This document shows positions 5,385 to 22,278 of a stretch of 23,195 nucleotides of DNA, one piece after another (positions within the stretch are counted from its first letter, which is position 1; each line of letters begins with the position of its first letter). This stretch comes from a virus (lineage: Duplodnaviria > Heunggongvirae > Uroviricota > Caudoviricetes), in the IMG/VR virus record IMGVR_UViG_2713896904_000008, positions 1-23,195 of that record; one strand, 5' to 3'. The notes under the pieces are model-generated. The model saw nothing but the letters and a program-made list of their open reading frames with translations. It did not search any database and was not told where the DNA came from. A program made the translations under genes and the position numbers.

Positions 5385-5390
5385 GGATAT

Positions 5391-5425: not shown

Positions 5426-5656
5426 TCAAATTCCTGTTGCTTCTACCATTTCACCATCAACCTGAACAAAGAATTTCAAATCAACTTTATGGAGTGATTT
5501 GTAGAATTGAGCGATTGAAATACCGTGTTCACTCAATACTTGCTCTTTTTCGGCTTTACCTTTCGGCGCTTGATAGTACGCTTTTACAATCGCTGCCAGT
5601 TGTTCACGATCAAAACGGCAAGGACGACCGCGAGTAGCTTTAGTAGTCATAGTCAT
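5426..5656 (-). CDS. Small putative HTH DNA-binding protein (76 aa; likely start at the internal ATG 5650)
   Basis: RBS GGAG upstream; N-motif TRGRPCRFDREQLAAIVKAYYQ and C-motif GISIAQFYKSLHKVDLK shared with 1784..1966 and 5685..6287. Confidence 0.6.
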   Translation of the reverse strand: MTMTTKATRGRPCRFDREQLAAIVKAYYQAPKGKAEKEQVLSEHGISIAQFYKSLHKVDLKFFVQVDGEMVEATGI

Positions 5657-5684
5657 TTCTCCAAATTAAAGTGAATGTTCACCT

Positions 5685-6287
5685 TTATTTAGAGGACTTA
5701 CATTTTATCGGAAAAAGTTCTCCATCGTCAATACTCATAAAGAACTCTGCCTTAATCCCGTACTTCTTCAACCGTGAATAGTATGTACCCCGACTTATAT
5801 CAACCTTGCGAAGCACTTCAAAGAACCCTTTAGGATCGTTGTAATAGTGGCTATAACGCACGTTAGCGAGTTCAACGAATAGTTCCCTTGTATCACCATA
5901 GCCTTTCTTGAAAGCCTCGTTACGATAGCGTGTAATTGCGTGATTCAATCTCTTCTGTTTCAACACTTCCCTGATCGGTGTCCACTGCAACCGATAGATA
6001 GGACCGTCATCCACTCGATAATAACGCTTGATATCAAAATCAAACCATTCACGGACTCTCTGGAACTCTGTCTGTGATGTTCGGTGCTTCTTAAAGAAGT
6101 TGTGAATATCTGTATATCCCTGATCGCGATACAACTCTATTAAAATTTGCTTCGCTTCCTCGCGACTAAAGCCGGATGTTGTGTAATCAGTCTTCTTGTG
6201 ATGGTGCTTAACTGGCAAACGATATTCATGATCGGTACAAGACAAGGCTAATTCTAATTCATCTCTTTCTTGCTGATTAATTAGCAT
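5685..6287 (-). CDS. Hypothetical protein (200 aa) carrying both paralog motifs separated by a ~100-aa insert; putative DNA-binding
   Basis: AGGGGG RBS; [16 protein letters not shown] and [17 protein letters not shown] match the motifs of the two small paralogs; divergent from the terminase gene. Confidence 0.65.
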
Positions 6288-6301
6288 ACAACCCCCTTTG
6301 A

Positions 6302-6329
6302 TTAATACCCGTATTTATCAAAATATCAA
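6302..6329 (-). promoter_or_regulatory. Candidate minus-strand promoter (TTGATA-16-TATTAA) for the leftward operon, in the divergent region with the terminase gene
   Basis: Read on reverse complement: -35 at 6324-6329, -10 at 6302-6307. Confidence 0.35.
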
Positions 6330-6372
6330 CAATTTAATAAATACCTTCATATTTCGTAATGAGGGTAATTAC

Positions 6373-8280
6373 ATGAAACTGATTTCGAACAAGGCCAAAT
6401 TAAAAAAGATTCTTAAAAATGCCGCAAAATATATCACTCCACCGCCTAAACTCCTTCCGTCTGAATGGTGCGAAGCGAATATGGTGCTGGTAGATGGTCC
6501 TCAAGCTGGGGATAAAGTTAAATTGTTGTCATTCCAAAAAGGCATGATTGATGCACCTTTCCTTGAGAACAAGAAAAAGTATGTTCTGATGACCAGTGCG
6601 CAGATCGGAAAGACTACCATCCTGAACGGTATCCTGTTTAACCAGATGGCTAACGATCCATGCAATATGATTATCGGACAATCAACCGCTAAAGAAATGT
6701 CTCAATATCTCGCGGGTAAGATCCGACCGTCTATCGAAGCATGTGATGCATTAAAAGACGTGGTTACAGACAAGAATGATCGCAATGCGGTTAACAACAA
6801 TAACCAGCTACAGCTAAAAACGAATCACTTCCTGTACATGGTATCGCTTACCAGTCCATCAACCCTACGTGGTAAGACCGCAAAGGTTGGATTGCTTGAC
6901 GAAATCGATGCTGCTACAGCCTCAGAAGAAGGTGATCCGGTGGCGCTGGCTGCTAACCGTTTAACTACCTTTGGCGATGAAGGTCGATTAGTCGTATCCA
7001 GTACCCCGACCAGTAAGCTCGGAAGCATTAACCAACAATGGTTATCAAGCGATATGCGTATGTTTTTTGTTCCGTGTCCTCATTGCGGTAGACACCAGGT
7101 GATCGAGTGGGAAAACGTTCAATTTGAATGGCGTAACATCGATGGTAAGAATTTACCCGATCCTGATACCGCTCGTTATATTTGCCCCCATTGTAAGAAC
7201 GCATGGACAGAAGGGGAACGAATCAGGGCAGTAGCGCAAGGCGAGTGGAGAGCAACCCGTGAAAGTGAAGTAGCAGGATTCTGGATTAGCCGTCTGTATT
7301 CACCTTTCAGCACGATCCGCGCTTGTGTGGTTGATTTTAGTCATGCGTGGCAATCCTTTGATTTACAATCATTTTATAACACCGTGTTAGGCAAGGTATA
7401 CGATGATCAGGACACGGCAGTAGAAGCAAATGAACTGGAAAAACTCAAAACAGATGTTTCTATCGAGAATATCCCTGATGACGTGATTTTCTTGTGCTCA
7501 GGAATTGACCAGCAATTGGATCGCGCAGAATCTACCATCTTAGGTGTAGCGAAAGATAAGGTTTACATTCTGGATCACCGTAGCTTTTACGATCATAACT
7601 GTGAACGATACGAATCACCTGTATGGGATCGTCTGGTTAACTTCAAGAAAACCAAATTCTATAACGTTAATGGTGAACGTGTGCCAATGCTCGCCAGCTT
7701 CCTCGATACATCAAACGGTCGATTCACTCAAGCCGGATACCGTATTTGTGGTAAGTGGAAGAACCTACACGCTATTAAAGGTAGTTCATCCGGTAATGCT
7801 CCAGTGATTCCGGTTAAACCTACCCGCACAGGTGGTCATGAATTGCTTATGCTGGGCGTTAACGTTGGTAAATCCGCTGTTCGTGAAATGCTGGTTAGAA
7901 ACCTGAAAGATAATCCTCATATTGGCTTAGAAATATCAGAAACCGTTCCTGATGATTATCTCGATCAGCTTTTGAGTGAATCCATCAAGCGTACTACTAC
8001 TGGTGTTCGTTGGGTGAAAAATCCAGGTAGTACCCGAAACGAGGCTCTCGACTGTCTGGTTTATAGCTATGCTGCTTCTCGCTACGTTCTTTCAAAAATG
8101 TCATGGGATAAACTCATTGCAATGAAAGACAGCTTAAACCGTGTTGTCGAAGAATCCGTAGAAGCTCATAAATCGCAATCTGACGAGCAAATCGAAGAAA
8201 CTAAGCCAAACCCACGACCACAGCGTCAAAACATCGCCAGACGTCCAAATAGAGGCCGTAGCTGGGTAACATCGTTCTAA
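6373..8280 (+). CDS. Terminase large subunit (lambda GpA-like), 635 aa from ATG 6373
   Basis: GAGGG RBS 7 nt before ATG 6373 (ORF track starts at 6298); Walker A-like [11 protein letters not shown]; size and position immediately upstream of portal. Confidence 0.85.
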
Positions 8281-8349
8281 TAACTCGCCGTCCTTCGGGG
8301 CGGCATCCCTAAATATTGTTAAACCAATAACAATTAAATAGGGGTAATT

Positions 8350-8844
8350 ATGAGTTTAGAACTAATTCCCTTAGTAATTCGTAAAGGCGAAAAAATCACG
8401 CTGGCGAATGAAGAGGGTGTAACAATTCAGGTAGGAAATAATAAAGGTATCATTTATCAGGTTGATGATTCTCCGGCTAATCACGAGATTAAAACCTTAG
8501 ATTTTGCCGAGGGTAAATATACCATCGTAATAACTTTGGATGATGAACTGGTATCAATGCAGGAATTGACTGTTTTGCCAGTATTCGCCAAACAATCCAA
8601 AAAAGAATATCTGCGGGAAACTATCGCCTTAATCGAGCAAGTTATTTTCGCCCGTTTATCTGGGGACGAAGCCGCATTATCTGCAATGACAATAAAGGGT
8701 AATTCCTTTGCCTATGAGTCATTGGGTGTTCTCCAGCAATTGAAGACTGATTATGAACGTCAGTTATCTAAAGTAATTCAAGCCGAACGACGTAAACAGG
8801 GAATTAGCCCGATTAAAAATATCAAATTACGTCTTACGCGATAA
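8350..8844 (+). CDS. Hypothetical head-morphogenesis protein (164 aa) between terminase and portal
   Basis: GGGGTAA RBS; synteny only, no recognisable motif. Confidence 0.55.
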   Translation: MSLELIPLVIRKGEKITLANEEGVTIQVGNNKGIIYQVDDSPANHEIKTLDFAEGKYTIVITLDDELVSMQELTVLPVFAKQSKKEYLRETIALIEQVIFARLSGDEAALSAMTIKGNSFAYESLGVLQQLKTDYERQLSKVIQAERRKQGISPIKNIKLRLTR

Positions 8845-8854
8845 GGGGTAAATC

Positions 8855-10366
8855 ATGTTTAATCTTTTTCGACGCAAAAAGGCGGTAGAAACTCCAGTTA
8901 AAACTAATCACCGCCAGCAACAACAAAAAATCTTTATCGACAAACAAGTAGAAAAATTCCAGAAAGATTTGTCTAAGCGTTCTTTGGGCTTAGTCGGTGA
9001 TCGCATTGATGGACAGCTTCAACAAGACACCATTACAGGAACCTTCAATAAGGCTCTCAAATCGAACGGTAAGCGCCTTTATGATCAGGGTCGTACTCTG
9101 GCTATAAACAATGCTGTAGGTAAGCGATACAAGCAGTATATCGTTGACCAAGTTGTTGGTACGGGGCTTGATCCGAAACCATCAATCGTTAAATCAAATG
9201 GCAAACTTGACACCGCACTGAATAAGCAGATCGAGAATGCTTTCTGGAAGTGGGCGCAGAGTGCTAAACGCTTCTCTCGCAACGGTCGCTTTAACTTCCG
9301 TGAAATGCTGGCAATGGCAGAATCTGAACGTGTTCAGGGTGGAGAATGCTTCATCGTTTTAACCAAAGAGAACAATGAGTTACAAGTTTCTATTCTGTCT
9401 GCTGATAGGTGCGACTGGTCGCTTAGTCGTGAAATAAGCAAAGAACGTGCGATCTATCAGGGGATTGAGTATGACGTAGACACAATGCGCCCTGTAGCAT
9501 ACTGGTTTAGAAAAATCAATCTACTGACTCAGACCTACACTGGCGAAAATTATCGCGTAGATGCTTCTCAGGTGTGCCACTACTACCAGCCACTGTGCGC
9601 GGAAAGTTTACGTGGTGTGACTGACTTCCTGCCAGTGATTAAGGATATTGCGCATCAAGAAGCGTTCCGCGAAACCGCGATCGTCCAGAAACGTATTGCG
9701 GCTAGTTCTATGGGCTTTATCGAACGTCCTAAAGATTCTGGTGACGATTTTGATACTGGTGAAGAGGATGAACAATATCAAGCGCCGGAAGTAGTACAGG
9801 ACTTTGCACCGGGTACTATTCAGGAATTGCCGGAAGGGGCAACAATCAAGAGCATTCAATCATCGCAAAATGGCGATGACTTTAACAGCTTCAATGATGC
9901 GATGTTCACTAGCGTATCAATGGGCTTAGGCGTGTTTAAACAGGGCTTGACTGGTGATACTAGCCAGATCAACTACTCAGCCGCACGTTTTGGTGATTTA
10001 ACTCAGCGTAACCGTGTTAAAGCACTGCAAAACAAATTAATTGAAACAGTGGTATTGCCAATTTTTGAAGCGTATCTACGCCATTATTCCGCGCGTGGTA
10101 TTGTTCCGATTCGTATTACTGCAATTCCGCATATTATCGATAATACAACTATTATTCGTCCGCGTTTTGAATCCGTCGATCCTATTAAAGACGTAAACGC
10201 CGAGATTGCTTTAATTCAAAATGGTCTTAAATCACGTACTGCCGTTATATTAGAACGTGGTGATGATCCTGAAAAAGTATTCTCAGAGATTCAAGCCGAA
10301 AAGAGCGCACTAAATATTATCGTTAATGGCGAGGGTGAAGAAAAAAATTCCCCAGCCGATCCCTAA
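8855..10366 (+). CDS. Portal protein (503 aa)
   Basis: Size, position after terminase, lambda-type portal-like composition; GGGGTAA RBS. Confidence 0.8.
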   Translation: MFNLFRRKKAVETPVKTNHRQQQQKIFIDKQVEKFQKDLSKRSLGLVGDRIDGQLQQDTITGTFNKALKSNGKRLYDQGRTLAINNAVGKRYKQYIVDQVVGTGLDPKPSIVKSNGKLDTALNKQIENAFWKWAQSAKRFSRNGRFNFREMLAMAESERVQGGECFIVLTKENNELQVSILSADRCDWSLSREISKERAIYQGIEYDVDTMRPVAYWFRKINLLTQTYTGENYRVDASQVCHYYQPLCAESLRGVTDFLPVIKDIAHQEAFRETAIVQKRIAASSMGFIERPKDSGDDFDTGEEDEQYQAPEVVQDFAPGTIQELPEGATIKSIQSSQNGDDFNSFNDAMFTSVSMGLGVFKQGLTGDTSQINYSAARFGDLTQRNRVKALQNKLIETVVLPIFEAYLRHYSARGIVPIRITAIPHIIDNTTIIRPRFESVDPIKDVNAEIALIQNGLKSRTAVILERGDDPEKVFSEIQAEKSALNIIVNGEGEEKNSPADP

Positions 10367-10411
10367 TAACCAACGGGGGCGCAATGCCCCCAATTAATTA
10401 AAGGTGATTAA

Positions 10412-12415
10412 ATGCTTAAATTTCGCCGCGATCTTAACGGTTACGGTGGAGTTATTAACGAAGGGCATAACGATCAATACGAATTTGAAATTGCTTTCTC
10501 AAGTACACAGCCTTATCAGCGCCAATTTTGGGATGAGCAAAATCAAGAAATGGTGGTATTAGATGAAATTCTGGTACATACACCGGAAGCGGTTGATCTG
10601 TCTCGTCTGAATAATAACGCTCCGTTGCTGTTCAATCATAATTTCGATAATCATTTAGGTGTAGTCTGCGACGCTCGAATCGATGCGGATAACGTAGGCC
10701 GTGCTCTGGTTAAATTCTCTAAGCATGGCACTTTGGCTAATGATGTTCGTAATAAAGTCATTGAAGGTACGATGGAAAAAATTTCTGTCGGCTATGACAT
10801 TAAAGAATATCACATCGATTACGCTAAAGGACAATTGATTGTTACTAAGTGGGCACCCTTTGAAATTTCATTTGTGACAGTTCCTGCTGACGATTCGGTC
10901 GGTTTAAATCGCTCTCTAAATACTATCACAGTTAATTTGGAGGCTAAACGCGATATGACTAAAGAACAAATCGAACAAGTTAAAGACGAAGAAAAAGAAG
11001 TCGCTCAGGTTGAAGAAACTCCGGTAGAAGAAAATAAAGAACCGGAAGTAGAAGAAACTCAAGAGCGCCAAGTTGAAGAGAATAAAGAAGATGAAAATCT
11101 CGAAGACGGAAAAGACGCTGAACATCCTGAAAGTGTTGATGATGATAGTTCAACTGTTCGGGAAGCAGAAGAAATAAAAGAAGAACGTGAAGCTGCTCCG
11201 GTTGAAGAAGAAAAAATCGAGGAAGTGGCTGAACGTTCCGAAGAAGACGAATTAGAAATTCGCGAAATTGCACGCGAACTAAATATTGATGACGAAGAAT
11301 TGAAACGCGCATTGGCAAATAAAGAAATGACGCCGGAAGCATTCCGCACTAAGGCACTAAATAACATTACCAATGCTCAACGTAATAACGAACAAATTAA
11401 GGACTCTAAAATGGAAAAAACTTTTGACCTGAACAACGTAATTCGCTCTCTGGTAGATGGTGAAGCTCTGGGTGCTAACGAAGCCGAGTTTTCTGCAATG
11501 GCTGCTACTGCAACTATGCAGCGTGGTCGTGCTGCTCGTGGTGGCTCTGTATTCGTTCCGGCTGCTGCTATGCGTGCTGCTGCTGCTGGTAACACCAAAG
11601 CCGATCTGACTGCTATCACCGACGAAAAACTGATGACTGAATCCTACATCGAAATGCTGATGCCGGAATCTGTTCTGGGTCGTCTGGGTGTGACTGTTTA
11701 CAGTGGCTTGAATGCTCCGACCGCTATTCCAAAAATGACTAAATCCAGCGTTGATGCTTTCGGCTTCGTTGATGAAAACGGTGCTGCGCCAGAAAGCAAA
11801 GCTGAATTTGCGAACGTGAAACTGTCTCCTAAGACTTTCGCTGGTGGCAACCCGATCAGCCGTCAGAGCATTAAAACCGTTCCGGGTATCGCTACCCTGA
11901 TCACTGATCACATCAACCAGGCCGTTCGCATCAAACTGGAACAACTGATTCTGTCTGACAAAGCTAACGATCGTGGTCCGGATGGTCTGGTTAAACAACT
12001 GGTAGACGCTAGCCGTGTTACTAAGAAAGCCGCTTTCAGCTACAAAGACTTCCTGAAAGAAATTGCAGCACTGACTGATGCTGGCGTTCCTGCTCAGGCG
12101 ATCAAGTTTGCAATGAGCGGTGCAACTGCTGCTGAACTGGAATCTACCCTGAAAGATAACGGCGTTTCCGGTTATATCATCGAAAACGGCAAACTGGCTG
12201 GTTACGATGTAGTTACTTCTGGTGTTATTCCGGCAGACCACATCGTTCTGGGTGACTTCTCCGGTATCACTATCGGTGAGTGGGGCGGTCTGGAACTGGA
12301 TATGGACGACACTACCTACCGTGCACAGTCCGCTATCGTTCCGCGTATCTGGGTAGATCTGGATTATGTTGTTACTCAGCCGGAAGCTCTGAAAGTTCTT
12401 CACATCTCCGAATGA
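10412..12415 (+). CDS. Prohead protease - acidic scaffold/delta region - major capsid protein fusion ORF (667 aa)
   Basis: N-terminal ~170 aa with prohead-protease-like LLFNHNFDNHLG ... ISVGY motifs; Glu/Lys-rich acidic middle (res ~190-330); Ala/Gly-rich capsid-like C-terminal domain with extreme codon bias; stop TGA. Confidence 0.8.
   Translation: MLKFRRDLNGYGGVINEGHNDQYEFEIAFSSTQPYQRQFWDEQNQEMVVLDEILVHTPEAVDLSRLNNNAPLLFNHNFDNHLGVVCDARIDADNVGRALVKFSKHGTLANDVRNKVIEGTMEKISVGYDIKEYHIDYAKGQLIVTKWAPFEISFVTVPADDSVGLNRSLNTITVNLEAKRDMTKEQIEQVKDEEKEVAQVEETPVEENKEPEVEETQERQVEENKEDENLEDGKDAEHPESVDDDSSTVREAEEIKEEREAAPVEEEKIEEVAERSEEDELEIREIARELNIDDEELKRALANKEMTPEAFRTKALNNITNAQRNNEQIKDSKMEKTFDLNNVIRSLVDGEALGANEAEFSAMAATATMQRGRAARGGSVFVPAAAMRAAAAGNTKADLTAITDEKLMTESYIEMLMPESVLGRLGVTVYSGLNAPTAIPKMTKSSVDAFGFVDENGAAPESKAEFANVKLSPKTFAGGNPISRQSIKTVPGIATLITDHINQAVRIKLEQLILSDKANDRGPDGLVKQLVDASRVTKKAAFSYKDFLKEIAALTDAGVPAQAIKFAMSGATAAELESTLKDNGVSGYIIENGKLAGYDVVTSGVIPADHIVLGDFSGITIGEWGGLELDMDDTTYRAQSAIVPRIWVDLDYVVTQPEALKVLHISE
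11411..12415 (+). CDS. Major capsid protein translated from an in-frame internal start (334 aa), nested in the fusion ORF
   Basis: AAGGA at 11399-11403, 7 nt before in-frame ATG 11411; codon usage switches to highly-expressed type (ctg, cgt, ggt, gct, ccg) from about this point. Confidence 0.5.
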   Translation: MEKTFDLNNVIRSLVDGEALGANEAEFSAMAATATMQRGRAARGGSVFVPAAAMRAAAAGNTKADLTAITDEKLMTESYIEMLMPESVLGRLGVTVYSGLNAPTAIPKMTKSSVDAFGFVDENGAAPESKAEFANVKLSPKTFAGGNPISRQSIKTVPGIATLITDHINQAVRIKLEQLILSDKANDRGPDGLVKQLVDASRVTKKAAFSYKDFLKEIAALTDAGVPAQAIKFAMSGATAAELESTLKDNGVSGYIIENGKLAGYDVVTSGVIPADHIVLGDFSGITIGEWGGLELDMDDTTYRAQSAIVPRIWVDLDYVVTQPEALKVLHISE

Positions 12416-12553
12416 ACTAACGTAGAACCTTCTGAACCTTCCCCCGATTTGGGGGAAGAAAATCTGATTCCATCTCAGGAAGAAGAATCCCAGACGGTTA
12501 CGGCGAAAGCCACAGCTAAAAAGGCGGGTCGTCCGCCGAAAGCAAAAGAATAA
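12416..12553 (+). other. In-frame open extension after the capsid TGA stop (45 codons: TNVEPSEPSPDLGEENLIPSQEEESQTVTAKATAKKAGRPPKAKE, then TAA TAA); candidate readthrough segment
   Basis: Hand translation in the capsid frame shows no stop until 12551-12553; perfect 8-bp hairpin cttccccc-gattt-gggggaag at 12438-12458. Confidence 0.45.
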
Positions 12554-12558
12554 TAATT

Positions 12559-12586
12559 AGCCCTGCCTAACGGTGGGGCTTTTTTG
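12559..12586 (+). terminator. Rho-independent terminator (agccctgcc-taac-ggtggggct + TTTTT)
   Basis: Stem with G-U pairs and T-run; same terminator family as 18458 and 19731. Confidence 0.75.
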
Positions 12587-12616
12587 TATGTAAATACTCC
12601 ATAAAAGGGGGTAACT

Positions 12617-12907
12617 ATGTTCAAATTATCAGAATCACAATTAAATCGAATGTTTAAGAGTGCTCCTGTTTTTGTCGTGGAAGGTGGTAAATCAATTCGT
12701 GCTTACCATGAAATTACTACTACCGACGAACAAGGGGTATGGACAGAATCAGAATTCTTATTCTGTCGTGAGGGAGATTTAAAGCAAGGTGATATTGTCA
12801 TTGTAGAAAATCAGCGTTTCAAAGTTCAATACATTAAGCGCAATGGTGACAATACCAGTGATTGCTTTATCACTTTAGCAGGGGGTGCTCATGCTCGCTA
12901 CCGTTAA
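12617..12907 (+). CDS. Putative head-completion / head-tail adaptor protein (96 aa)
   Basis: GGGGGTAA RBS; small ORF directly after capsid gene; synteny-based. Confidence 0.5.
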   Translation: MFKLSESQLNRMFKSAPVFVVEGGKSIRAYHEITTTDEQGVWTESEFLFCREGDLKQGDIVIVENQRFKVQYIKRNGDNTSDCFITLAGGAHARYR

Positions 12908-13313
12908 TAATATGCCACGTCTTAAGATTAAACGTGCTTTACAGGATATTATCGAACAAGATCTAGGTCTGGCTTTAAACGTAGAACAAACTCAGCAAGG
13001 CTTTAGTGATGACGTGGTTTGTTGGATCACCGGAATGAATGAGACTTACAATAGGGTCCGTGGCGGTAATGCAATGCAAGCTGAATGCGTTATCGAAATG
13101 CAATTGTATTCTCAGATTCATGAAACCAAAATTCATGAGGGTATTTGCCAGATAATCCAGATTCAGCCAGATAACCCACGTTTTAAAGATTTGGGCTTCG
13201 CTATTTCAGATATCACTCCAGTAGCCTCTAATACCGATTATGACGACGATTCTAGTGATGGGGGTATCGTTGGGACACTTAGCCTTAAATTTTCTTATCT
13301 AGCGCGTTTTTAA
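12891..13313 (+). CDS. Putative head-tail joining / tail completion protein (141 aa from ATG 12891; ORF track starts at GTG 12885)
   Basis: AGGGGG 5 nt before ATG 12891; 17-nt overlap with upstream gene suggests translational coupling; synteny-based. Confidence 0.5.
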   Translation: MLATVNNMPRLKIKRALQDIIEQDLGLALNVEQTQQGFSDDVVCWITGMNETYNRVRGGNAMQAECVIEMQLYSQIHETKIHEGICQIIQIQPDNPRFKDLGFAISDITPVASNTDYDDDSSDGGIVGTLSLKFSYLARF

Positions 13314-13322
13314 GGGGTAATA

Positions 13323-14156
13323 ATGAATATTACGCATGATAACTTAGATATTTTTACGGGATCACATGTTGAAGTGTCGATCTCTAACCAGCTAGACAAT
13401 CAGGTCGACTTTTTCGATCCTAGCTTTAGTTCTATTGAGAACATCGCAGCATTCCCTACTCTAACCGAATCCACAGAGATAGAAACTCTGGAAGAGTATG
13501 ATCATGATGCTACTGGTAAGCTGGCTGGCTATCGCAAACTTGAACCGACTACGCTCACAGTAAACCGTGTTCTGGATGACGAACATCAAGCAATGTTGAT
13601 GAAAGCGGTAGAGGATAAAACACCTTTACGCTTCCGTATGTTCTATGTTGTGAACTCTGGCTATAGTGCTGCTAACACTGGTTACTATGTCATCTATGAT
13701 GCTTACGTCACATCACACAAAACCCGTGGTAGTGATAACAAAGCTGTAACACTGGAATTCAAACTTGAACCAGATGGCGGGATTCTTGCAAGGGGTATAG
13801 CGACCGAGGGAAAACTCATCCGACAAGGGGATTTTGGCGTAGGCTCAGGCGTTAGCCCATTCACCGGACCTATTGATAGTGAATCTCTGACAGGAAACCG
13901 CTTTGTAACCTACAAAGGAACGGCCAGCACTAACCCTTATGGTGCTGATACATCGTTAATTCATCTTCAAGCTAATGAGCATGGCGCATGGCAATTAACG
14001 TGTAATACTTCCGGTGCTCCACGTTTGCGGGTACGAAATATTCAGGACAACGGAAAATCGGAATGGATTAAAGTCTATACAACAAACGAGAAGCCTACGC
14101 CAGCCGAAATTGGCGCAGTGGCTAAGACGGACCGGATCGATTTCGGTGAGTATTAA
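13323..14156 (+). CDS. Tail-tube-fold paralog of the major tail protein with a C-terminal tail-fibre-like domain (277 aa)
   Basis: N-terminal ~150 aa align by eye with ORF 17865..18341 (DIFTG; FP-T; TLTVN; KA-ED-T; YYV; TG-; EF-); C-terminus IKVYTTNEKPTPAEIGA matches tail-fibre segment YKMYHEGDKPTPGEIGA. Confidence 0.65.
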   Translation: MNITHDNLDIFTGSHVEVSISNQLDNQVDFFDPSFSSIENIAAFPTLTESTEIETLEEYDHDATGKLAGYRKLEPTTLTVNRVLDDEHQAMLMKAVEDKTPLRFRMFYVVNSGYSAANTGYYVIYDAYVTSHKTRGSDNKAVTLEFKLEPDGGILARGIATEGKLIRQGDFGVGSGVSPFTGPIDSESLTGNRFVTYKGTASTNPYGADTSLIHLQANEHGAWQLTCNTSGAPRLRVRNIQDNGKSEWIKVYTTNEKPTPAEIGAVAKTDRIDFGEY

Positions 14157-14186
14157 GATTGCGTACCTAAATAAAACATGAACGTT

Positions 14187-14212
14187 GGGAGGTTAACGCC
14201 TCCCTTATTCCT
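14187..14212 (+). terminator. Candidate terminator hairpin (gggagg-ttaacg-cctccc + U-rich tail)
   Basis: 6-bp GC stem followed by ttattcctgtttta. Confidence 0.4.
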
Positions 14213-14233
14213 GTTTTATAGTGAGGTGATTCG

Positions 14234-17200
14234 ATGCAGTCGATCCAATTTAAACGCACACAGACGGCTGGTAAAAAGCCAACGCCGGAACAATTACAGG
14301 TCGGTGAAATCGCTATTCAGATGGCAGACCATGTAATTTATACCAAAGATAAAAATAACGCAGTAGTTCAAGTAAGTGTTTCTCCTGAAAGTCATAATGC
14401 TTTAAACACAAAAGTAGACAATAACAAGAAAACTACTGATGCGACTATCGCGGCAAATAAAACCGAAGCTGCTAACGCTCTGGCTACCGCTAAATCTGAA
14501 CTGAATAACACGATTAACACGAAAGATACAGCGACCAATAAGCGCATTGATGCTACTAACACCACTGTTAGTAACTTAACCCAGACAGTTACGGCAAATA
14601 AAACCGACGCTGACACCAAGATCAATAACCTTACGGGGACAGTTGCATCTAACAAATCAGCTATTGAAACTACAGTAGCTAATAACAAACGAGATGCGGA
14701 CAATAAAATCGCAGCTTTAACCACGACGGTTAATGACAATAACACCGCGATTAACAACAAAGTTAATACCACTAACACCAACGTTAGCAACTTAACTAAA
14801 ACTGTTACTGCAAATAAAACCGATGCAGATAACAAAATTTCTAGCTTAACTAGCACGGTTGCAGCTAACAAAACAGCGATTGAAAAGGTCGTTTCCGACA
14901 ACAAGAAAGATGCTGATACTAAAATCAGTAACCTTACAGGGACGGTGAATAGCAACCATACCGCTATTAACGCAAAGGTTGACAAAAACAAAACTGATAC
15001 TGATTCAGCGATCGCAGCCGCTAACCGTCGAATTGATTCTATTGAAGGTAGTAACGATGCTCTTTACATCAAGAAGAATACCAACACTTATCATCACGGC
15101 TATTTGTTAACCAAAACAGCTAACTATCTGGAAGACCAGACATCACGAGATCTTAACTACTTTGGTGCTTTCCGAACTAATGGACAAGATGGACTCATGG
15201 ATCTAACTCTTAATGTTCCTCATTCTGCCGGTAAAGCGCACGGTCGCGGATTTACTTTCCGTTATGCGTCTGGTGGATCTCGTGTTGAAACCTATGGTTT
15301 TGATAGAGAAGGACAGAAGAACTTTAGCTATAAGATGTATCACGAAGGTGATAAGCCGACTCCTGGCGAAATCGGTGCATACACTAAAGCAGAAGTTGAC
15401 AAGATGTTTGTTAAAAACGTCACTATGTCTGTTCCTAATTCTAGCGAAAACGTATCTGCATATTTCAAATTGGCAACCGCAACAATTCCACAAAACGGGC
15501 GTAGTGTGTTTTTCCGTATTCATGGTGGTAATGGTTACAACGTTACGGCATATGACCAAGTTGATGTAGTAGAAATTCTTCTCCGTAGTGGTAACGATAG
15601 ACCTAAAGGACTTAACGTAATTGCATACCGTAGAAATACAAACAAAGATTTTGAGGTATTTGCTGTCAATACTTCCGGTGATAACTATGATATCTACGTG
15701 AAATATCAGCGTTATACCGATAACGTTATTGTCGAATATGGGAAATCTGTTTATGTAAGTTTGACGGTTTATGATACGCCGGAAGCCACGTTAATTAAAC
15801 CTTCCGTTGGTGTTATCGGTGGTCGCAACGTAACTCTTTTTAACACAGAAAATAAACGTGGTGTGTTGAGTTTTGACGACAATACACAAAACAGCTATGA
15901 CATTGTTCATCTAAGCAATGATAGAGGTACTGGACGGAAATATATTCGTAAATTCCGTAGCAACTATAACGAAATGATCTGGCATGAGACTGTTCAAGGT
16001 AATACATATCGATTGGCAACCGGAACGACTGATGCATCGGAAGTTTTTAGAATTACTAGTCGCACCATGTTTACTGGTAAAGGTGTATTTGATGCCGGAC
16101 AAAACGTTCTTAGATTAGAGCGTCCTAGCAACCAATCAAACTATATTGAATGGCAAGACCGCCGAAATGGTGCTGATGCTCGTCAAGGTTGGATCGGTTT
16201 TGGTGGTGCTGAAACAAATAACTTTCAATGGTATAGCGATCAAGGAAAAAACTCATTCCTGTTGGATGCTAATGGTCAATGCTCTATTATTACTGGTGCA
16301 ACAAAAATTGTATATACCAACGGTGAATATTGCTCTGGCAACTCTAACGCATATCGTATGGCATTTGGTAACTATGGCGCATTCTGGCGTAATGACGGCA
16401 CTAAAGTTTATCTGTTGTCTACTGCTGAAAACGATAAGTTGGGCGGCTGGAATACTTATCGACCATTCATTTATGATTTAACTTCCGGTAACGTTCAATT
16501 AGGCGGTGATGGTAACGAAGATGCATTAACGTTAGAACGTGCTTCTCGTGCCGCTCGCTTTAGTAATGACGTTTACATTAAGAAAGGGCATTTGACTTTC
16601 GACGCTGGACGATTAGGATCTCGTGATTTCTTTAAAATCAACCATTGGGGTGATAGCAATAACGCCCGTGATAACATTTTGCAGTTTGAAGACAGTCAGG
16701 GCGCACATTTTACCACTGAACGTGCTATGGGTACTGGTAACATAACAGCACGTTTTAAAGGCTTTGTTCGTGTTGAGTCTGGTGAGATTGCATTTGATGC
16801 TAATCGGGGGTCGCAGTCTCAATTCACCTTACACACATGGGGTAACGAGCAACGCAAACAGGTTTTTGAATGTAAGGATGCTACAAGTTATCACTGGTAT
16901 ACTGAACGTACTCAGGGTGGCACTGGACCTATTCTGTTCGCTATGGCGGGTAGTCTAAACGTTGCTAGCAATATCACAACAACTGGTGCTGATATTACGT
17001 TTAAACGCGCTGGCAATAAGCACATCTGGTTTAGAGATCCAGACGGTTTAGAGTTAGGCTTGATGTACTGCGATGATGCTGGTGCTATTCGCTTCCGTGG
17101 TCAGAAACAAGCCCAGACGTGGAAACTTGCGGATAAGATGATTCATCTTGAATCTGGTAGCGTCGGCGGGTCTGATAAAGGTTTGATTCGTGGTAACGTT

Positions 17201-17809
17201 TCTGGTGGTAGTTGGGCTAGCTGGCGTGACCGTGCTTCCGGTTTACAAGTTGATTGTCCTCAATCAACCGATTCCGCTCATAACATCTGGAAAGCGACTC
17301 ATTGGGGAAAATATCATATTGCGGCAATGGGTGTGCATGTTCCTGGCGGCACTATAGGTAATGCTATGGCACGTCTAAACGTAAATGACGCCAACTTTGA
17401 CTTTAACGCTGCGGGTGATTTTAGCGCAGGTCGTAACGGTAGCTTTAACGATGTTTATATTCGTTCTGACCGTCGTCTGAAAGTTAATCTGGAAGAATTA
17501 AAAGATGATGCTTTAGAGAAAGTAAACTCCCTGAAAGTCTACTCATACGATAAAGTTAAGTCTCTTAAAGATCGTAGTGTGATTAAACGCGAAGTCGGTA
17601 TTATTGCTCAGGATCTTGAAGAAGTATTGCCGGAAGCAGTAGGTATTCAATCCACCGAAGATCCAGAAAATCCAGAAGCAATTAAGACTATTTCTAACTC
17701 CGCTGTTAATGCCTTGATTATTAAAGCTATTCAGGAAATGGACGCCAAATATAAAGCCCAGATCGAAGCATTACAGAAAGAAATTGCCGAACTCAAAGCA
17801 ACTAAATAA
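14234..17809 (+). CDS. Long tail fibre protein with C-terminal intramolecular chaperone / self-cleaving domain (1191 aa)
   Basis: N-terminal KRTQTAGKKPTPEQLQVGEIAI anchor-like motif; 72-aa tandem repeats; C-terminus SDRRLK ... GIIAQDLEEVLPEAV resembles the chaperone domain of phage T5 L-shaped fibre and endosialidases (Ser-Lys dyad motif). Confidence 0.85.
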   Translation: MQSIQFKRTQTAGKKPTPEQLQVGEIAIQMADHVIYTKDKNNAVVQVSVSPESHNALNTKVDNNKKTTDATIAANKTEAANALATAKSELNNTINTKDTATNKRIDATNTTVSNLTQTVTANKTDADTKINNLTGTVASNKSAIETTVANNKRDADNKIAALTTTVNDNNTAINNKVNTTNTNVSNLTKTVTANKTDADNKISSLTSTVAANKTAIEKVVSDNKKDADTKISNLTGTVNSNHTAINAKVDKNKTDTDSAIAAANRRIDSIEGSNDALYIKKNTNTYHHGYLLTKTANYLEDQTSRDLNYFGAFRTNGQDGLMDLTLNVPHSAGKAHGRGFTFRYASGGSRVETYGFDREGQKNFSYKMYHEGDKPTPGEIGAYTKAEVDKMFVKNVTMSVPNSSENVSAYFKLATATIPQNGRSVFFRIHGGNGYNVTAYDQVDVVEILLRSGNDRPKGLNVIAYRRNTNKDFEVFAVNTSGDNYDIYVKYQRYTDNVIVEYGKSVYVSLTVYDTPEATLIKPSVGVIGGRNVTLFNTENKRGVLSFDDNTQNSYDIVHLSNDRGTGRKYIRKFRSNYNEMIWHETVQGNTYRLATGTTDASEVFRITSRTMFTGKGVFDAGQNVLRLERPSNQSNYIEWQDRRNGADARQGWIGFGGAETNNFQWYSDQGKNSFLLDANGQCSIITGATKIVYTNGEYCSGNSNAYRMAFGNYGAFWRNDGTKVYLLSTAENDKLGGWNTYRPFIYDLTSGNVQLGGDGNEDALTLERASRAARFSNDVYIKKGHLTFDAGRLGSRDFFKINHWGDSNNARDNILQFEDSQGAHFTTERAMGTGNITARFKGFVRVESGEIAFDANRGSQSQFTLHTWGNEQRKQVFECKDATSYHWYTERTQGGTGPILFAMAGSLNVASNITTTGADITFKRAGNKHIWFRDPDGLELGLMYCDDAGAIRFRGQKQAQTWKLADKMIHLESGSVGGSDKGLIRGNVSGGSWASWRDRASGLQVDCPQSTDSAHNIWKATHWGKYHIAAMGVHVPGGTIGNAMARLNVNDANFDFNAAGDFSAGRNGSFNDVYIRSDRRLKVNLEELKDDALEKVNSLKVYSYDKVKSLKDRSVIKREVGIIAQDLEEVLPEAVGIQSTEDPENPEAIKTISNSAVNALIIKAIQEMDAKYKAQIEALQKEIAELKATK
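14558..14990. repeat. Two tandem ~216-bp repeats (72 aa each, with ~14-aa sub-periodicity TVTANKTDADxKIxxLTxTV) in the fibre shaft
   Basis: NTTVSNLTQTVTANKTDADTKI at residue 109 and NTNVSNLTKTVTANKTDADNKI at residue 181. Confidence 0.7.
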
Positions 17810-17864
17810 TAAAAGTCGGGGGACTAGTTCCCCCGTAATAACAATTTAATTAAGGGGTAATTCT

Positions 17865-18341
17865 ATGTCTCAGCAATTTAAAGATATTTTTACTGGTGGT
17901 CTGGTAAGTCTGTTCTATCACGCCGATACCACTAACACCAATCTTGCACATGAAAGCTATGAAGAAATTAAAGAGTGTGCTGGTTTTCCTGAAACTGGTA
18001 TCGAGCGCGGTACTGTAGAAGTTAAATCCTTCTCTTCTCAGTATAACCGTAAACTGGTAGGGAAGCTGAACGTTCCTGATCTGACTCTGACCGTTAACTA
18101 CATCCCAGGCGATGCGGTACATGAAAAACTGATCAAAGCTGCCGAAGACGGTACTCGTATTCAGATTAAAGTAGAATATTACGTTGACGCAGCAAAACAG
18201 ACTGGTATTCGCACCGCTTTCAACGGCTTCATTTCTAAAGTTGCTATGAACGGTGGCGATGAAGAAGTGGTAACTAAAGAGTTTACCTTTGCAGTGGACG
18301 GCAAACCGCTGAAACAGGAAATCTTCAATACTGCCTCTTGA
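17865..18341 (+). CDS. Major tail (tube) protein, 158 aa
   Basis: Position immediately upstream of chaperone/tape-measure genes; strong codon bias; GGGGTAA RBS; stop TGA. Confidence 0.75.
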   Translation: MSQQFKDIFTGGLVSLFYHADTTNTNLAHESYEEIKECAGFPETGIERGTVEVKSFSSQYNRKLVGKLNVPDLTLTVNYIPGDAVHEKLIKAAEDGTRIQIKVEYYVDAAKQTGIRTAFNGFISKVAMNGGDEEVVTKEFTFAVDGKPLKQEIFNTAS

Positions 18342-18452
18342 ACTTTCGAAGAACAACCCCAGCCAATTCAAGATGAACCTACGGTGATTCCAGAATTAGA
18401 GGTTGTTACGGCGAAAGCCACAGCTAAACGAAGCCGCAAGGCTAAAGATTAA
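18342..18452 (+). other. In-frame open extension after the major tail TGA stop (36 codons: TFEEQPQPIQDEPTVIPELEVVTAKATAKRSRKAKD, then TAA); candidate readthrough segment
   Basis: Hand translation; shares the 24-nt block gttacggcgaaagccacagctaaa (peptide VTAKATAK) with the capsid extension. Confidence 0.45.
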
Positions 18453-18457
18453 TTATA

Positions 18458-18486
18458 AGCCCTGCCTTAATGGTGGGGCTTTTTTA
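18458..18486 (+). terminator. Rho-independent terminator (agccctgcc-ttaat-ggtggggct + TTTTT)
   Basis: Same stem sequence as the terminator at 12559. Confidence 0.75.
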
Positions 18487-18500
18487 TTGGAGTAATAAAA

Positions 18501-19007
18501 ATGGCAAATGTCGTTAATAAGCCCGGCTGGGTCGGATCATCGGCTGTTTCTGTAACTGGCAAGAGATGGATGCGTGAGGCTATGCAAGCGTTAAAAGTTG
18601 GTGTTCCTGGTAATATGAGCGCGATGTGTGGTCGTGGTATGGATACGGTTGTAGCTACTGCTGCATGGTCTACTTCATTGGGTAATAACTGGGGTGTAAC
18701 TGCTTCAAACTATCCAGTAACTGACATGCGCGGTAAAGGATCTATGGAGAACCCCGAAAACGTGGGCGTAGGGCGTCTGATTGGCGTTATCGTTGGTCAA
18801 TTCAATGGCGGTACTCCTACTATGGCTGTATATCTCCAGAACGGTAGAGCGGGGAATATAACCGTTAATTTGGGTGGTGCTGCTGTCACTGTTCCTTATA
18901 ACAGTATGCAAAGTGGTTTTCATTACTACTGGTTAAGCAATCCTCCGGCTGCTTTCCTCAATAACATTAAGAAGACTGGCACTAAGCAGACTTTGAAAAT
19001 CTCATAA
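18501..19007 (+). CDS. Hypothetical Gly-rich protein (168 aa); moron-like insertion between major tail gene and tail chaperone
   Basis: Own RBS (GGAG) directly after a terminator; codon usage (aga, ata, tta, gga, ggg, agt) differs from the flanking highly biased structural genes. Confidence 0.55.
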   Translation: MANVVNKPGWVGSSAVSVTGKRWMREAMQALKVGVPGNMSAMCGRGMDTVVATAAWSTSLGNNWGVTASNYPVTDMRGKGSMENPENVGVGRLIGVIVGQFNGGTPTMAVYLQNGRAGNITVNLGGAAVTVPYNSMQSGFHYYWLSNPPAAFLNNIKKTGTKQTLKIS

Positions 19008-19040
19008 ATACACCGCAATCAACTTTATGAGGACTCAAGA

Positions 19041-19349
19041 ATGAATATTAACGAAATGTTAGCCGCTTTAACTCCTGCTCGTAAATCTATTGAAATCAAC
19101 GGTTTTAAATTTTATGCCCGTCCGATGACCGTAGTAGAATTTAACGAGCACATCACCGCAGTAGATAAGAATGGTCGTGATGAACTGACTATTCTCAATT
19201 GTGTACAGGATGAAGACGGCAATCAGATTTTTGAATCAATCGAACAAGTCAACGCTCTTTATACTACCGCTAAACAGAAATTGATTGGTTTGGTTGCTAT
19301 GGCTTCCATCATGCCGGAACCGTCAGAAGTTGAAGAATCGGTAAAGTAA
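19041..19349 (+). CDS. Tail assembly chaperone (G-like), 102 aa
   Basis: Position immediately upstream of tape measure gene; followed by an overlapping -1 frame ORF. Confidence 0.6.
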   Translation: MNINEMLAALTPARKSIEINGFKFYARPMTVVEFNEHITAVDKNGRDELTILNCVQDEDGNQIFESIEQVNALYTTAKQKLIGLVAMASIMPEPSEVEESVK

Positions 19350-19723
19350 ACCCCTTCTTGAAGTTCTATTATCGGCAGATTATGCGTAAAGGGCTTAGTA
19401 AAGATGAAATGCTCACTATGCCGATCACTTTATTCTATAGCCTATACATTTTCGACACGTTCTTAGAACCGCAATCACCTGTATTTCACGATGATCAGAT
19501 GGCGATGCTTCAATATACCATGTATATGACGTCGCCTAACATGACTCGTGATTTTGCTAAAAAGATTAAACCTAGTCAATTCAAATCAATTAGCGACGAA
19601 AAAGTATTCCTTACTAAGAAAGATATTGAGGAAAGGGAACGTAAGAAGCGGGAAGAAAATAAAGCTGCAATGCTTTCTCTGTTCGATCCTGCATTACTCG
19701 ATACTCTCAAGAAGGGTAAATAA
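19334..19723 (+). CDS. Tail assembly chaperone extension (T-like) in the -1 frame; probable G-T frameshift product
   Basis: -1 frame open from 19334, overlapping the last 5 codons of the G ORF; no SD before TTG 19358; candidate slip at A-AAG-UAA (19343-19349). Confidence 0.45.
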   Translation, partial: RIGKVNPFLKFYYRQIMRKGLSKDEMLTMPITLFYSLYIFDTFLEPQSPVFHDDQMAMLQYTMYMTSPNMTRDFAKKIKPSQFKSISDEKVFLTKKDIEERERKKREENKAAMLSLFDPALLDTLKKGK

Positions 19724-19730
19724 TATTGCC

Positions 19731-19758
19731 GCCCTGCCGTTATTGGCGGGGCTTTTTT
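19731..19758 (+). terminator. Rho-independent terminator (gccctgcc-gttatt-ggcggggc + TTTTTT)
   Basis: Third member of the gccctgcc / ggggc terminator family. Confidence 0.75.
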
Positions 19759-19776
19759 GTATAAAGAGAGGTACAC

Positions 19777-22278
19777 ATGGCAAAAACTAAACATGTTTTG
19801 ACGGTTGAAGCCGAAATTAAAGAGGCTCAGAAAAAACTAAAACAATTAGAAGGTCAGATTAATTCCATTTCCGAAAAAGCGGGTAAGGGATTTAAAGTTA
19901 ATGGTGGTATTGGTGGCGGTGGATTCGGTGGTATATCTGAATTGGTAGGAATGGTAAACCGCTTTGCTGGTCCACAGGGGATCGCAGTCGCCGCAGCCGC
20001 AGCCACTAAGAAATTCGCGGATCACATCGCTGGTCTTTCTAGTGAACTAAGACAAGCCTCAGAGATGAGCGGTGTTGGGATTGAAGAATTACAGCGTTTA
20101 ACAGGGGTGATGAAAAACGTTAATTTAACCGCTTCCCAAGCTGCTGATATTCATAAAGACGTTAACGAGAAAATCTATGAAGCCGTTCAATCTGGTACGG
20201 GTGAGATTGCTGGTGTTGCCAAAGAATATAAGCTGAAATTTGAAGAAATCAGCAAGGTAACAGAAAACGGTGGTACTGGTATTGATGCACTCGCTAAGAT
20301 GTATTATATGCTTCGTGAACAAGGACACACAGCAAACGAGGCAGCGAGCGCCATTTCTCGTGTTAGTGATAAAGGTGGTGAACTGGCGAATCAGTTTGAG
20401 AAAATGGGGTCAGAGGCTGAATATTACAAGCAGAAGGCTAGCCAGTCTATTAACATTACCGAAGAGATGGCAAAGAAACACGCTGAATATGAGCAAAAAA
20501 CCAAAGATTTAGGAACTGCCATTGATGGTATTAAGGTAGAAGTATTTCAAGACCTGATCGTTGGTATGACTGACTTTTTTAATCATCTCTATCGGTCATT
20601 AGTTCAGTATAAATCTGATGCTGCTTTAACAGATAATTTTAAAGCACCAAAATTAACTGGCGTAGCAAAAGAACAACAAGAAAAATTACAGCAACAATTT
20701 CATAAAAACAGCACACATAAAACTGGTATAGGTGGATCTACTGGTAATTGGATGGGTAAAGAGCAAGGATTAAGCTATCAAGAAGCATTGATGCTCGTTA
20801 AAATGAATATGGATCCGACCAAGTATTTCAAGCACGCCAATAACCAGATGTACCGCGCCTTGCAAATGGCTCGTGAAGGTAAAAACTTCAATAACTCCGA
20901 TGCTCGCAAGAACTTTAGATTCACGTTCGATGGCAAGGTCTATGACGGCAACTACAACCAGATTGAAATTGCCAAAAAACAGGAAAATGACGGTAAAGGG
21001 CTTAACTCTGGTGGCGGTACTACTTGTTCTAAGTGTGGTGGTAAGAAGCACGAAGGTAACGAGAAATGCCCTGTTGATTTGGCTAAGGAAGCCCAGCAAC
21101 GCCGCGAGAAGGAACAAAAACAGCGAGAGGAGGCACTCAAGAAACTGAATGATCTCGATGTTAAATTGCAAGGACAGACCGCAGCGTCTATCACTTCTCA
21201 AAACAAGCAATTAGAAACCAGCTTAAAAGATCTTGATAATGCTGTTAAGTTGGGGCTTATTTCTCAGGAAGACGCAGCTACTAAACGCCAGCAACTGATC
21301 GACCAGAACGCCGAAAACGTTTATAAGATGGTCTTAGGTGCTGATCCGGTTGATGCTCTGAATGCTTTAACACAATTGCAACAAATCAGGGACAATGAGT
21401 TAGAAAGCCATAAACGGTTACTTGATGGTAAGGCTATCTCCTACGAAGAATATATGCGTCGTGTGAATGATACCGAACAAAGTTATTCGCAGATTGAAGA
21501 TTCTTTGCATGGAATGGATGGTTTTAAATCCAATCAATTAACAGATAGTTTCTCATATCAAGATCCGAATGATCCGTTTGCTGCTTTTAATTCCATTGAT
21601 CAAGAAAAAAGAGAAGCCGAACAAGATTACCAGACTAAGAAACTTGATATTAATAACATCAAAGATCCGAAAGAGCGGTATAAACAGTTAGAAAAACTCA
21701 ACGCTGAACATCAAAAGAAAATGGCAGCTATTGAGAAACAATATTCTGATGCTCGTTTAGGTATTGCTTCCGACATGTATGATGGTATTTCTGGTGCTAT
21801 GGCTCTCTTTGGTGCGGAAAACTCTAAAGCGGCTAAAGCTGCATTTATGGCGCATCAAGCCTACCAGATCGGCGAAGCAACGGTTAGCACTTACGCTGGT
21901 GCTGCTGCTCAGATCGCGAAGCAAAACTATGCTGGTGCGGCTTTGATCGTCGCTCAAGGTTTAGCACAGGTTGCTAAAATCAAATCTGTATCGGTTAGCG
22001 GTATGGCTCATGATGGTATCGATAACATCCCTCGTGAGGGTACATGGTTGCTTGATAAGGGTGAACGAGTAGTTGATCAGCGTACTAACGGTGATTTGAA
22101 AGACTTCTTATCTGCTCAAAAATCAGGTGGTGGTAACTCTCAGCCGATTGAAGTTAATGCGCCTTTGAACATTAACGGCAACGTTAATAGCTCAGACAAG
22201 ATGGTCATGGAAGCTATCAAACGTCATGCTAAGTTAGTTGCTCAGGCGGTAGAAGACGCACAGCGCCGTAAGATGTAA
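19777..22278 (+). CDS. Tail tape measure protein (833 aa)
   Basis: Long helical, Ala/Lys/Glu/Gln-rich protein with Gly-rich segment; canonical position after the chaperone pair. Confidence 0.85.
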   Translation: MAKTKHVLTVEAEIKEAQKKLKQLEGQINSISEKAGKGFKVNGGIGGGGFGGISELVGMVNRFAGPQGIAVAAAAATKKFADHIAGLSSELRQASEMSGVGIEELQRLTGVMKNVNLTASQAADIHKDVNEKIYEAVQSGTGEIAGVAKEYKLKFEEISKVTENGGTGIDALAKMYYMLREQGHTANEAASAISRVSDKGGELANQFEKMGSEAEYYKQKASQSINITEEMAKKHAEYEQKTKDLGTAIDGIKVEVFQDLIVGMTDFFNHLYRSLVQYKSDAALTDNFKAPKLTGVAKEQQEKLQQQFHKNSTHKTGIGGSTGNWMGKEQGLSYQEALMLVKMNMDPTKYFKHANNQMYRALQMAREGKNFNNSDARKNFRFTFDGKVYDGNYNQIEIAKKQENDGKGLNSGGGTTCSKCGGKKHEGNEKCPVDLAKEAQQRREKEQKQREEALKKLNDLDVKLQGQTAASITSQNKQLETSLKDLDNAVKLGLISQEDAATKRQQLIDQNAENVYKMVLGADPVDALNALTQLQQIRDNELESHKRLLDGKAISYEEYMRRVNDTEQSYSQIEDSLHGMDGFKSNQLTDSFSYQDPNDPFAAFNSIDQEKREAEQDYQTKKLDINNIKDPKERYKQLEKLNAEHQKKMAAIEKQYSDARLGIASDMYDGISGAMALFGAENSKAAKAAFMAHQAYQIGEATVSTYAGAAAQIAKQNYAGAALIVAQGLAQVAKIKSVSVSGMAHDGIDNIPREGTWLLDKGERVVDQRTNGDLKDFLSAQKSGGGNSQPIEVNAPLNINGNVNSSDKMVMEAIKRHAKLVAQAVEDAQRRKM

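Follow-up and report, generated by a model that had tools for sequence, protein, structure and literature searches.

The present work concerns a gene for an unusual tail protein in a stretch of 23,195 nucleotides from a virus (IMG/VR record IMGVR_UViG_2713896904_000008, positions 1 to 23,195); we refer to the whole of this stretch as the window. This region represents the structural module of an Enterobacterales prophage of the siphovirus type. The gene in question, here called PARA, lies directly behind the gene of the tail terminator protein and is followed by the gene of a long fibre (FIB), by that of the standalone major tail-tube protein (TUBE) and by that of a gp38-like adhesin. PARA encodes a tube-fold domain, a glycine-rich linker and a C-terminal module which resembles the distal end of the T4 fibre protein gp36, and the neighbouring FIB starts in the manner of gp37. 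As we argue below, it is probable (about 65%, judging from the sequences and the structure models) that PARA is an in-line ring of the tail tube which anchors a fibre corresponding to the distal half-fibre of T-even phages.

Results

Tube domain of PARA

An alignment made by eye had led the original prediction to propose that the N-terminal 150 or so residues of PARA correspond to the 158-residue major tail protein of the same genome, and this proposal was borne out. In a BLASTP comparison, residues 9-159 of PARA align with residues 7-153 of TUBE at 30% identity over 152 residues with 6 gaps (E=7e-14), and a profile of the N-terminal domain built from 20 family members matches TUBE with E=4e-23. 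The PHROG 158 family, 'major tail protein', is matched both by PARA (5.4e-9, residues 10-154) and by TUBE (2.1e-21), and also by 20 of the 20 family members tested. Judged by sequence comparison, the paralogy of the two proteins is confirmed well beyond chance. TUBE passes the threshold of the Pfam family Phage_TTP_11 (PF16460) narrowly, with a score of 28.9 at a cut-off of 28.4. For PARA neither the Pfam nor the NCBIfam library, both of which were scanned, gave a match, and a profile search against the sequences of the PDB returned only chance matches to ribosomal protein L16.

Structure prediction, run on single chains, followed by fold comparison confirmed the TTP/Hcp-like tube fold of the N-terminal domain, the very comparison of residues 1-150 that had been suggested as a check. 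PARA retains all the secondary-structure elements of TUBE as well as the DIF.G motif of the N-terminal arm. Could PARA be the tail terminator instead? We rejected this candidate: PARA does not have the terminator fold known from lambda gpU and T5 p142, and the 140-residue protein encoded upstream does, so that the terminator role is already taken. The glycine-rich linker behind the tube domain is predicted to be disordered in the monomer (pLDDT, the predicted local distance difference test score, below 50).

The gp36-like end of PARA

Beyond the tube domain PARA carries an extension of 117 residues. Its motif IKVYTTNEKPTPAEIGA had been noted to match the segment YKMYHEGDKPTPGEIGA inside FIB, and this similarity is real but short, with 36% identity over 42 residues and E=7e-4 as a single comparison; by profile, the C-terminal module matches FIB with an independent E-value of 2e-4. 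The profile of the family matches long fibre proteins in which the module occurs in 3-10 copies, with E-values down to 1e-18, and at the level of the family the sequences clearly mark it as a fibre module. A further resemblance that had been proposed, an 'echo' KKPTPEQLQVGEIA at the N-terminus of FIB, did not survive comparison: its E-value is 1.4 and the stretch belongs to a different, gp37-type domain. Lenient Pfam scans gave no match for the C-terminal half of PARA or for the N-terminus of FIB. No Ig-like or FN3 domain was matched in PARA by Pfam either; the extension matches fibre families instead.

The fibre protein which the end of PARA resembles most closely is gp36. Residues 239-277 align with residues 461-496 of the 496-residue gp36 of Krischvirus at 38% identity (E=1e-4), and the alignment is collinear and has no overhang, with ...ELYHEGHKPTPDDVGAVPLNAVIDFGTF standing against ...KVYTTNEKPTPAEIGAVAKTDRIDFGEY. 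PHROG 16472, which is the Krischvirus gp36 family (1090 bits), is matched at positions 426-495 of 496 by residues 207-276 of PARA with E=0.009, and it is also matched by 8 of the 20 family members, the best with E=7.9e-24. The C-terminal end of T4 gp36 reads ...KDSVQDFGYY, and all close members of the PARA family, long or short, have the ending [IVL]D[FLA]G.[FYL]. The longer members carry Pfam Phage_T4_gp36 and PHROG 1425. No alignment to PARA was found for residues 1-30 of gp36, the N-terminal region of that protein. Since PARA begins with a tube domain and lacks any such N-terminal alignment, it is by its sequence a carrier of the distal end of gp36 and not an ortholog of gp36.

FIB and its gp37-type start

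If PARA ends like gp36, does its neighbour begin like the natural partner of gp36? Residues 1-112 of FIB match residues 4-104 of T4 gp37 (E=1e-11), and residues 1-48 match the gp37 N-terminus at about 50% in 1183 records of T4-like phages. The protein further holds a Gp34_trimer domain and a C-terminal S74 intramolecular chaperone, both assigned by Pfam. Among relatives the first 60 residues of FIB are 63-85% identical and the following 180 residues only 8-25%, a pattern which, read from the alignments, is typical of exchangeable fibres with a conserved end for attachment. The gp37-type motif opens every fibre that adjoins a close form of PARA. In T4, trimeric gp36 has been reported to bind the N-terminal region of gp37 (PMC3004832), and by homology on both sides the junction of PARA with FIB would be a gp36-gp37 junction.

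The relationship with T4-like phages extends to the DNA. About 2.6 kb of FIB (15101-17740, the distal two thirds of the gene) are 78-89% identical to gp37 of RB49/JSE-type T4-like phages (Krischvirus), which suggests that a temperate siphovirus and virulent myoviruses have recently exchanged DNA here. As regards the gp38-like gene, TUBE intervenes between it and FIB in the window; in the relatives L043-L046, L049, L059 and L062 it stands directly after the fibre gene.

Relatives, gene order and selection

A profile search over 1.84 billion representative proteins (representatives at 50% identity, E up to 0.001) matched 313 relatives, a number which includes standalone tube proteins and fibre proteins that share the C-terminal module only. 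When 158 family sequences were examined, the tube domain proved to be followed by more than 300 residues in 113 and by more than 600 in 95, and 63 of these 95 have at their end an S74 chaperone which is a homolog of the one in FIB. The 277-residue PARA is therefore among the shortest forms of the family; the usual form joins tube domain, linker and whole fibre in one polypeptide.

Close homologs occur only in Enterobacterales, namely in E. coli, Shigella, Salmonella, Providencia, Edwardsiella, Proteus and Enterobacter. Between E. coli and Proteus PARA is conserved over its full length, and 46 columns of the alignment are invariant. The linker residues G169, D170, G172, G174, G176, G182, D185, G191, N192 and R193 are invariant, and the linker motif GD[FY]G[VI]G.G ... 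GN[RSA]F, which is also found in a distant subfamily, is the most conserved piece of the whole family. The linker probably acquires its fold only when the ring or trimer assembles.

The order portal, capsid, gpFII-like protein, terminator, PARA, FIB, (gp38), TUBE, chaperones and tape measure is kept in about 60 loci, these being viral contigs found with the close-family profile down to 35% identity. In them PARA has 277-583 residues and is always directly followed by FIB. With the distant subfamily 80 contigs were found, in which a fusion protein of 415-1351 residues is followed by a standalone tube gene encoding 147-173 residues; this gene usually starts within 70 nt, and sometimes fibre-chaperone-like or extra fibre open reading frames (ORFs) intervene. 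Among the hosts of the distant subfamily are Phytobacter and Yersinia, the only loci found with a narrower alignment. Altogether, a tube-domain protein is encoded upstream of the standalone tube gene in 116 related loci. Within a locus, paralog and tube protein are 21-32% identical. Between the two subfamilies the standalone tube proteins are 37% identical and the paralogs only 23%, and because the tube proteins are the more conserved, the sequences point to an old duplication with PARA as the faster-evolving copy. In the loci L044-L046, L049 and L061-L063 the standalone tube protein itself is longer, 251-264 residues, owing to a C-terminal extension of about 100 residues.

The ratio of non-synonymous to synonymous substitution rates (dN/dS) of PARA is about 0.1, with values of 0.07-0.13 in all three parts of the protein, as expected of a gene under purifying selection.

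The module is not shared by all phages with related structural proteins. Dinoroseobacter phage R4C and the RcCronus group, found through the capsid protein, and the Vibrio phages henriette 12B8 and V6Aob, found through the tube protein, have no paralog or fibre between the terminator and tube genes, and the module is therefore no general trait of those groups. Among the records of cultured phages none carries the family except one GenBank record, 'Escherichia phage DCP80' (PQ671644, L001 in our set, 141 kb), which is filed under Gaprivervirus (Straboviridae). Positions 1-17000 of this record are a siphovirus structural module of the PARA lineage, with a 699-residue tube-fibre fusion, a 745-residue fibre and a 164-residue tube protein. 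The record is probably chimeric or misclassified, and our literature search found no paper on DCP80.

The surrounding module

The features of the window are collected in Table 1.

Table 1. Features of the window around PARA; coordinates are positions in the window.
Feature	Coordinates	Strand	Remarks
Terminase	6298-8280
Portal	8855-10366
Protease-capsid fusion	10412-12415
Small gpFII-like protein	12617-12907
Tail terminator protein, 140 aa	12891..13313	+	ends 9 nt before PARA; terminator fold
PARA, 277-aa tube paralog with fibre-connector extension	13323..14156, including stop	+	ATG start; ORF list
Predicted tail-tube-fold domain, PARA aa 1-160	13323..13802	+
Glycine-rich linker, PARA aa 161-208 (GDFGVGSG...GNRF)	13803..13946	+	conserved
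gp36-like fibre module, PARA aa 209-277	13947..14153	+	KPTPAEIGA motif near end
IDFGEY, terminal tail of PARA	14136-14153	+
Weak hairpin GGGAGGTTAACGCCTCCC with poor T run	14187..14204	+	between PARA and FIB
FIB, 1191-aa gp37-type distal half-fibre	14234..17809	+	Pfam and PHROG matches
Putative docking N-terminus of FIB, aa 1-60	14234-14413	+
TUBE, standalone 158-aa major tail-tube protein	17865..18341	+	Pfam; PHROG 158
gp38-like adhesin for fibre tip	18501..19007	+	Pfam Gp38_N 3.6e-15; PHROG 1121 1.5e-33
Tail assembly chaperones	between gp38-like adhesin gene and tape measure gene
Tape measure protein, 833 aa	19777-22278
Distal-tail-protein-like ORF	22329 onward

PARA has a Shine-Dalgarno sequence, AAGGGG, at 13312-17, and the ribosome-binding context TAAGGGGTAAT is common to PARA (13311-13321) and TUBE (17851-17861); it may be a relic of the duplication. 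Two strong terminator-like hairpins of nearly the same sequence, AGCCCTGCC...GGTGGGGCT, each with a T run behind it, are found at 12559-12580 and 18457-18481, directly 3' of the capsid gene and of TUBE, that is, of the genes of the two most abundant virion proteins, and they probably tune transcript levels.

Phage homology ends near position 22858, inside the distal-tail-protein-like ORF (22329-23195), and beyond it lies ycdX-like host sequence. The prophage of the window is truncated and is without the tail-tip genes. Because the host part past 22858 is only 80-90% identical to E. coli, the host is probably other than E. coli proper. Of 5426 complete E. coli genomes, 54 (about 1%) carry the module itself at 88-95% DNA identity, and in those genomes PARA is annotated as 'hypothetical protein'. 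An intact relative of the prophage lies at 2769454-2803253 of E. coli ETEC1738 (NZ_CP122768), and its PARA protein is WP_149449191.1.

Discussion

PARA as a probable anchor of the fibre

The structural details of side-fibre fixation on flexible tails have been worked out for very few siphophages, and those that we found, T5/DT57C and Ur-lambda, both use a collar around the tube. PARA suggests another solution, apparently a common one, in which a fibre or a fibre socket is fused to a tube paralog. The reading which we favour, given above with its rough probability, draws on the paralogy with TUBE, the tube fold, the homologies of the gp36-type end and the gp37-type start, the synteny, the fused relatives, the purifying selection and the existence of a separate terminator protein. 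According to this model, residues 1-160 of PARA would form a ring that stacks in line with the ordinary tube rings, with the same bore and the same contacts, because the complete fold of the phage's own tube protein is preserved in them. The linker of about 48 residues would leave the wall of the ring and lead to the gp36-type module with its end ...IDFGEY; three such ends would meet, as in gp36, to form a stub that binds the gp37-type N-terminus of trimeric FIB. At its tip FIB would bear the gp38-type adhesin once the S74 domain has been removed. The result would be a T-even-type distal half-fibre mounted directly on a non-contractile tail, in which a tube domain replaces the attachment through T4 gp34 and gp35.

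Three observations favour the role of an adaptor between tube and fibre: a gp36-type end and a gp37-type start form the known gp36/gp37 joint, the tube domain and an S74-ended fibre are one polypeptide in most relatives, and the order terminator, paralog, fibre, tube is maintained across the close loci. The original prediction had left the choice between a collar and an adaptor for anchoring the fibre. The adaptor agrees well with the homologies, the fused relatives and the gene order; the collar fits less well, since a ring of tube fold, with a bore equal to that of the tube, has to continue the line of the tube and cannot encircle it.

How many fibres would such a ring carry, and where in the tail would it be? 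One ring of six chains would give two trimeric stubs and thus two fibres. Tail assembly begins at the tip, and by standard length rules a processed fibre of about 1075 residues is about 70 nm long and a tape measure of 833 residues corresponds to a tail of about 125 nm. We therefore favour a ring at the tip-proximal end, beside the distal tail protein, because assembly starts there, because a fibre of this length fixed at the neck could not reach the tip, and because in T5 the tube paralog p140 sits at this place, under a collar which bears fibres. It may even be, although we offer this tentatively and hold it somewhat less likely than not to be right in full, that PARA belongs to an unnamed and widespread family of side fibres which are anchored as part of the tube wall, the six linkers joining three by three into two trimeric fibres, and that the form in the window presents two gp36-like sockets for an exchangeable T-even distal half-fibre.

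Several points weigh against this reading. A hexamer that feeds trimers would require a break of symmetry. The gene of PARA adjoins that of the terminator and not the baseplate genes, which could equally suggest a ring close to the neck. PARA and TUBE have ribosome-binding sites that hardly differ, and a low copy number of PARA is not evident from the sequence. The pairwise match to the end of gp36 is short (39 residues) and PARA's own match to PHROG 16472 is weak, so that the case for a gp36 end appears stronger for the family than for the protein of the window alone. In the structure models the C-terminal module has low confidence (pLDDT 56-71) and the linker is not modelled at all. Lastly, the prophage of the window is truncated at the distal tail protein, and the system is therefore probably non-functional here.

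Other explanations

The placement of the PARA gene leads to the alternative which survives best: PARA could be the same adaptor in a head-proximal ring just below the terminator, its fibres standing at the neck like the whiskers of T4 or the neck passage structure of lactococcal phages. Such an arrangement would differ from the one we favour in position only. In siphophages the order of the tail genes often mirrors the order of the parts in the virion, and PARA is encoded 9 nt after the terminator gene and upstream of TUBE. A tandem duplication of the tube gene, however, also explains this order, and a ring that has to be added last would lack an obvious timing signal in a tail built from the tip. 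The fibre would also not reach the cell together with the tip of the tail, and the T5 paralog p140 adjoins the distal tail protein (PMC10038345). We regard a ring at the neck as unlikely, if conceivable.

Could PARA instead have nothing to do with FIB? Its ring might bear short knobs or stubs of its own, the gp36-like end being the leftover of a longer fibre, and FIB might sit on the tail tip by means of another protein. The longer forms of PARA (342-1209 residues) do resemble complete fibres, and DCP80 holds both a PARA of 699 residues and a fibre of 745. Yet all close PARA proteins keep the DFG tail and are directly followed by a fibre with a gp37-type start, as in the gp36/gp37 joint, and purifying selection on the C-terminal module is strong (dN/dS 0.04-0.16). 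There is in our view little likelihood of an independent stub of this kind.

About as improbable is the idea that PARA is a minor tube subunit which decorates the whole length of the tail in the manner of SPP1 gp17.1* or of the Ig-like domains of lambda gpV and T5 pb6, its C-terminal module serving as a weak adhesin and the long fibre docking elsewhere. The extension is a connector end of the gp36 type and not an Ig-like or FN3 domain, and most relatives carry on the same tube domain an S74 fibre of 600-1350 residues, an obligate trimer, which would be implausible on every ring. The strong terminator hairpins, moreover, follow the capsid gene and TUBE and not PARA.

That PARA is a tube-gene duplicate in decay or an artefact of annotation, as the truncated prophage, the lack of a Pfam or NCBIfam match and the entry 'hypothetical protein' in every database might suggest, is effectively refuted by its conservation, for it is of full length with 46 invariant columns from E. 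coli to Proteus, has a dN/dS of about 0.1, occurs in 54 of 5426 complete E. coli genomes and is paired with the tube gene in 116 loci.

Significance

In the literature we found no description of a fibre fused to, or anchored by, a tube-fold domain, and among solved structures we found none that covers the PARA family. If the more tentative idea of a family anchored as part of the tube wall is correct, it would be a third mode of attaching side fibres to non-contractile tails, structurally distinct from the collars of T5 and of lambda Stf, and it would offer an adaptor, ready for use, by which receptor-binding fibres of the T4 type could be transferred to the tails of siphoviruses. The gp36/gp37 joint of T-even phages appears to have been reused on a siphovirus, which bears on the movement of host-range modules between very different phages. 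Perhaps PARA could guide the swapping of fibres in engineered phages or tailocins, and giving the family a name would improve the annotation of prophages.

Comparison with known systems

The closest parallels to PARA are divided among several well-studied phages, and distal tail proteins (Dit) such as ORF15 of lactococcal phage p2 are counted among them. Lambda gpV, SPP1 gp17.1* and T5 pb6 are major subunits or frameshift variants which place Ig-like or FN3 domains on all or many rings of the tail. PARA shares with them a tube fold followed by an outward-facing C-terminal domain; unlike them it is encoded as a paralog of its own, which evolves faster, and it is extended by a fibre connector or, in relatives, by a whole fibre.

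A fibre protein with a ring-forming N-terminal domain of its own is known from Ur-lambda. There the ring-forming domain of Stf is a six-strand sheet that makes a 12-mer collar around the junction of gpV and gpM, outside the tube, and flexible linkers gather three ring domains for each trimeric fibre, which resolves the symmetry mismatch (PMC12617516). The fibre proteins of the PARA family would likewise carry their own ring-forming domain. In contrast to Stf, the predicted fold of this domain is that of the tube, a long linker of high conservation follows it, and a ring of six chains would yield two fibres, not four.

In T5, the p140 tube-paralog ring lies beside the distal tail protein, and a separate 12-mer collar of Ig-like p132 holds the pb1 side fibres, p140 itself being undecorated (PMC10038345). 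The p140 protein is a two-domain pseudo-hexamer, 9% identical to pb6 (PMC10038345). Like p140, PARA is a tube-fold paralog of the phage's own tube protein; unlike it, PARA contains a single tube domain, shares 30% identity with TUBE and carries the fibre stub itself on its 117-residue extension. Within 12400-23195 there is no obvious candidate for a separate collar gene of the p132 type.

As to T4, the end of PARA including its DFG.Y tail resembles the end of gp36, the N-terminus of FIB resembles that of gp37, and a gp38-type adhesin is encoded as well. The differences are that a tube domain and a linker take the place of the region of gp36 which faces gp35 and gp34, and that the particle has a tail of the siphovirus type and not a contractile tail with a baseplate. 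Taken together, the role of PARA would be roughly that of T5 p140 and p132 combined, with a distal joint like that of T4 gp36, and PARA is a member of neither family.
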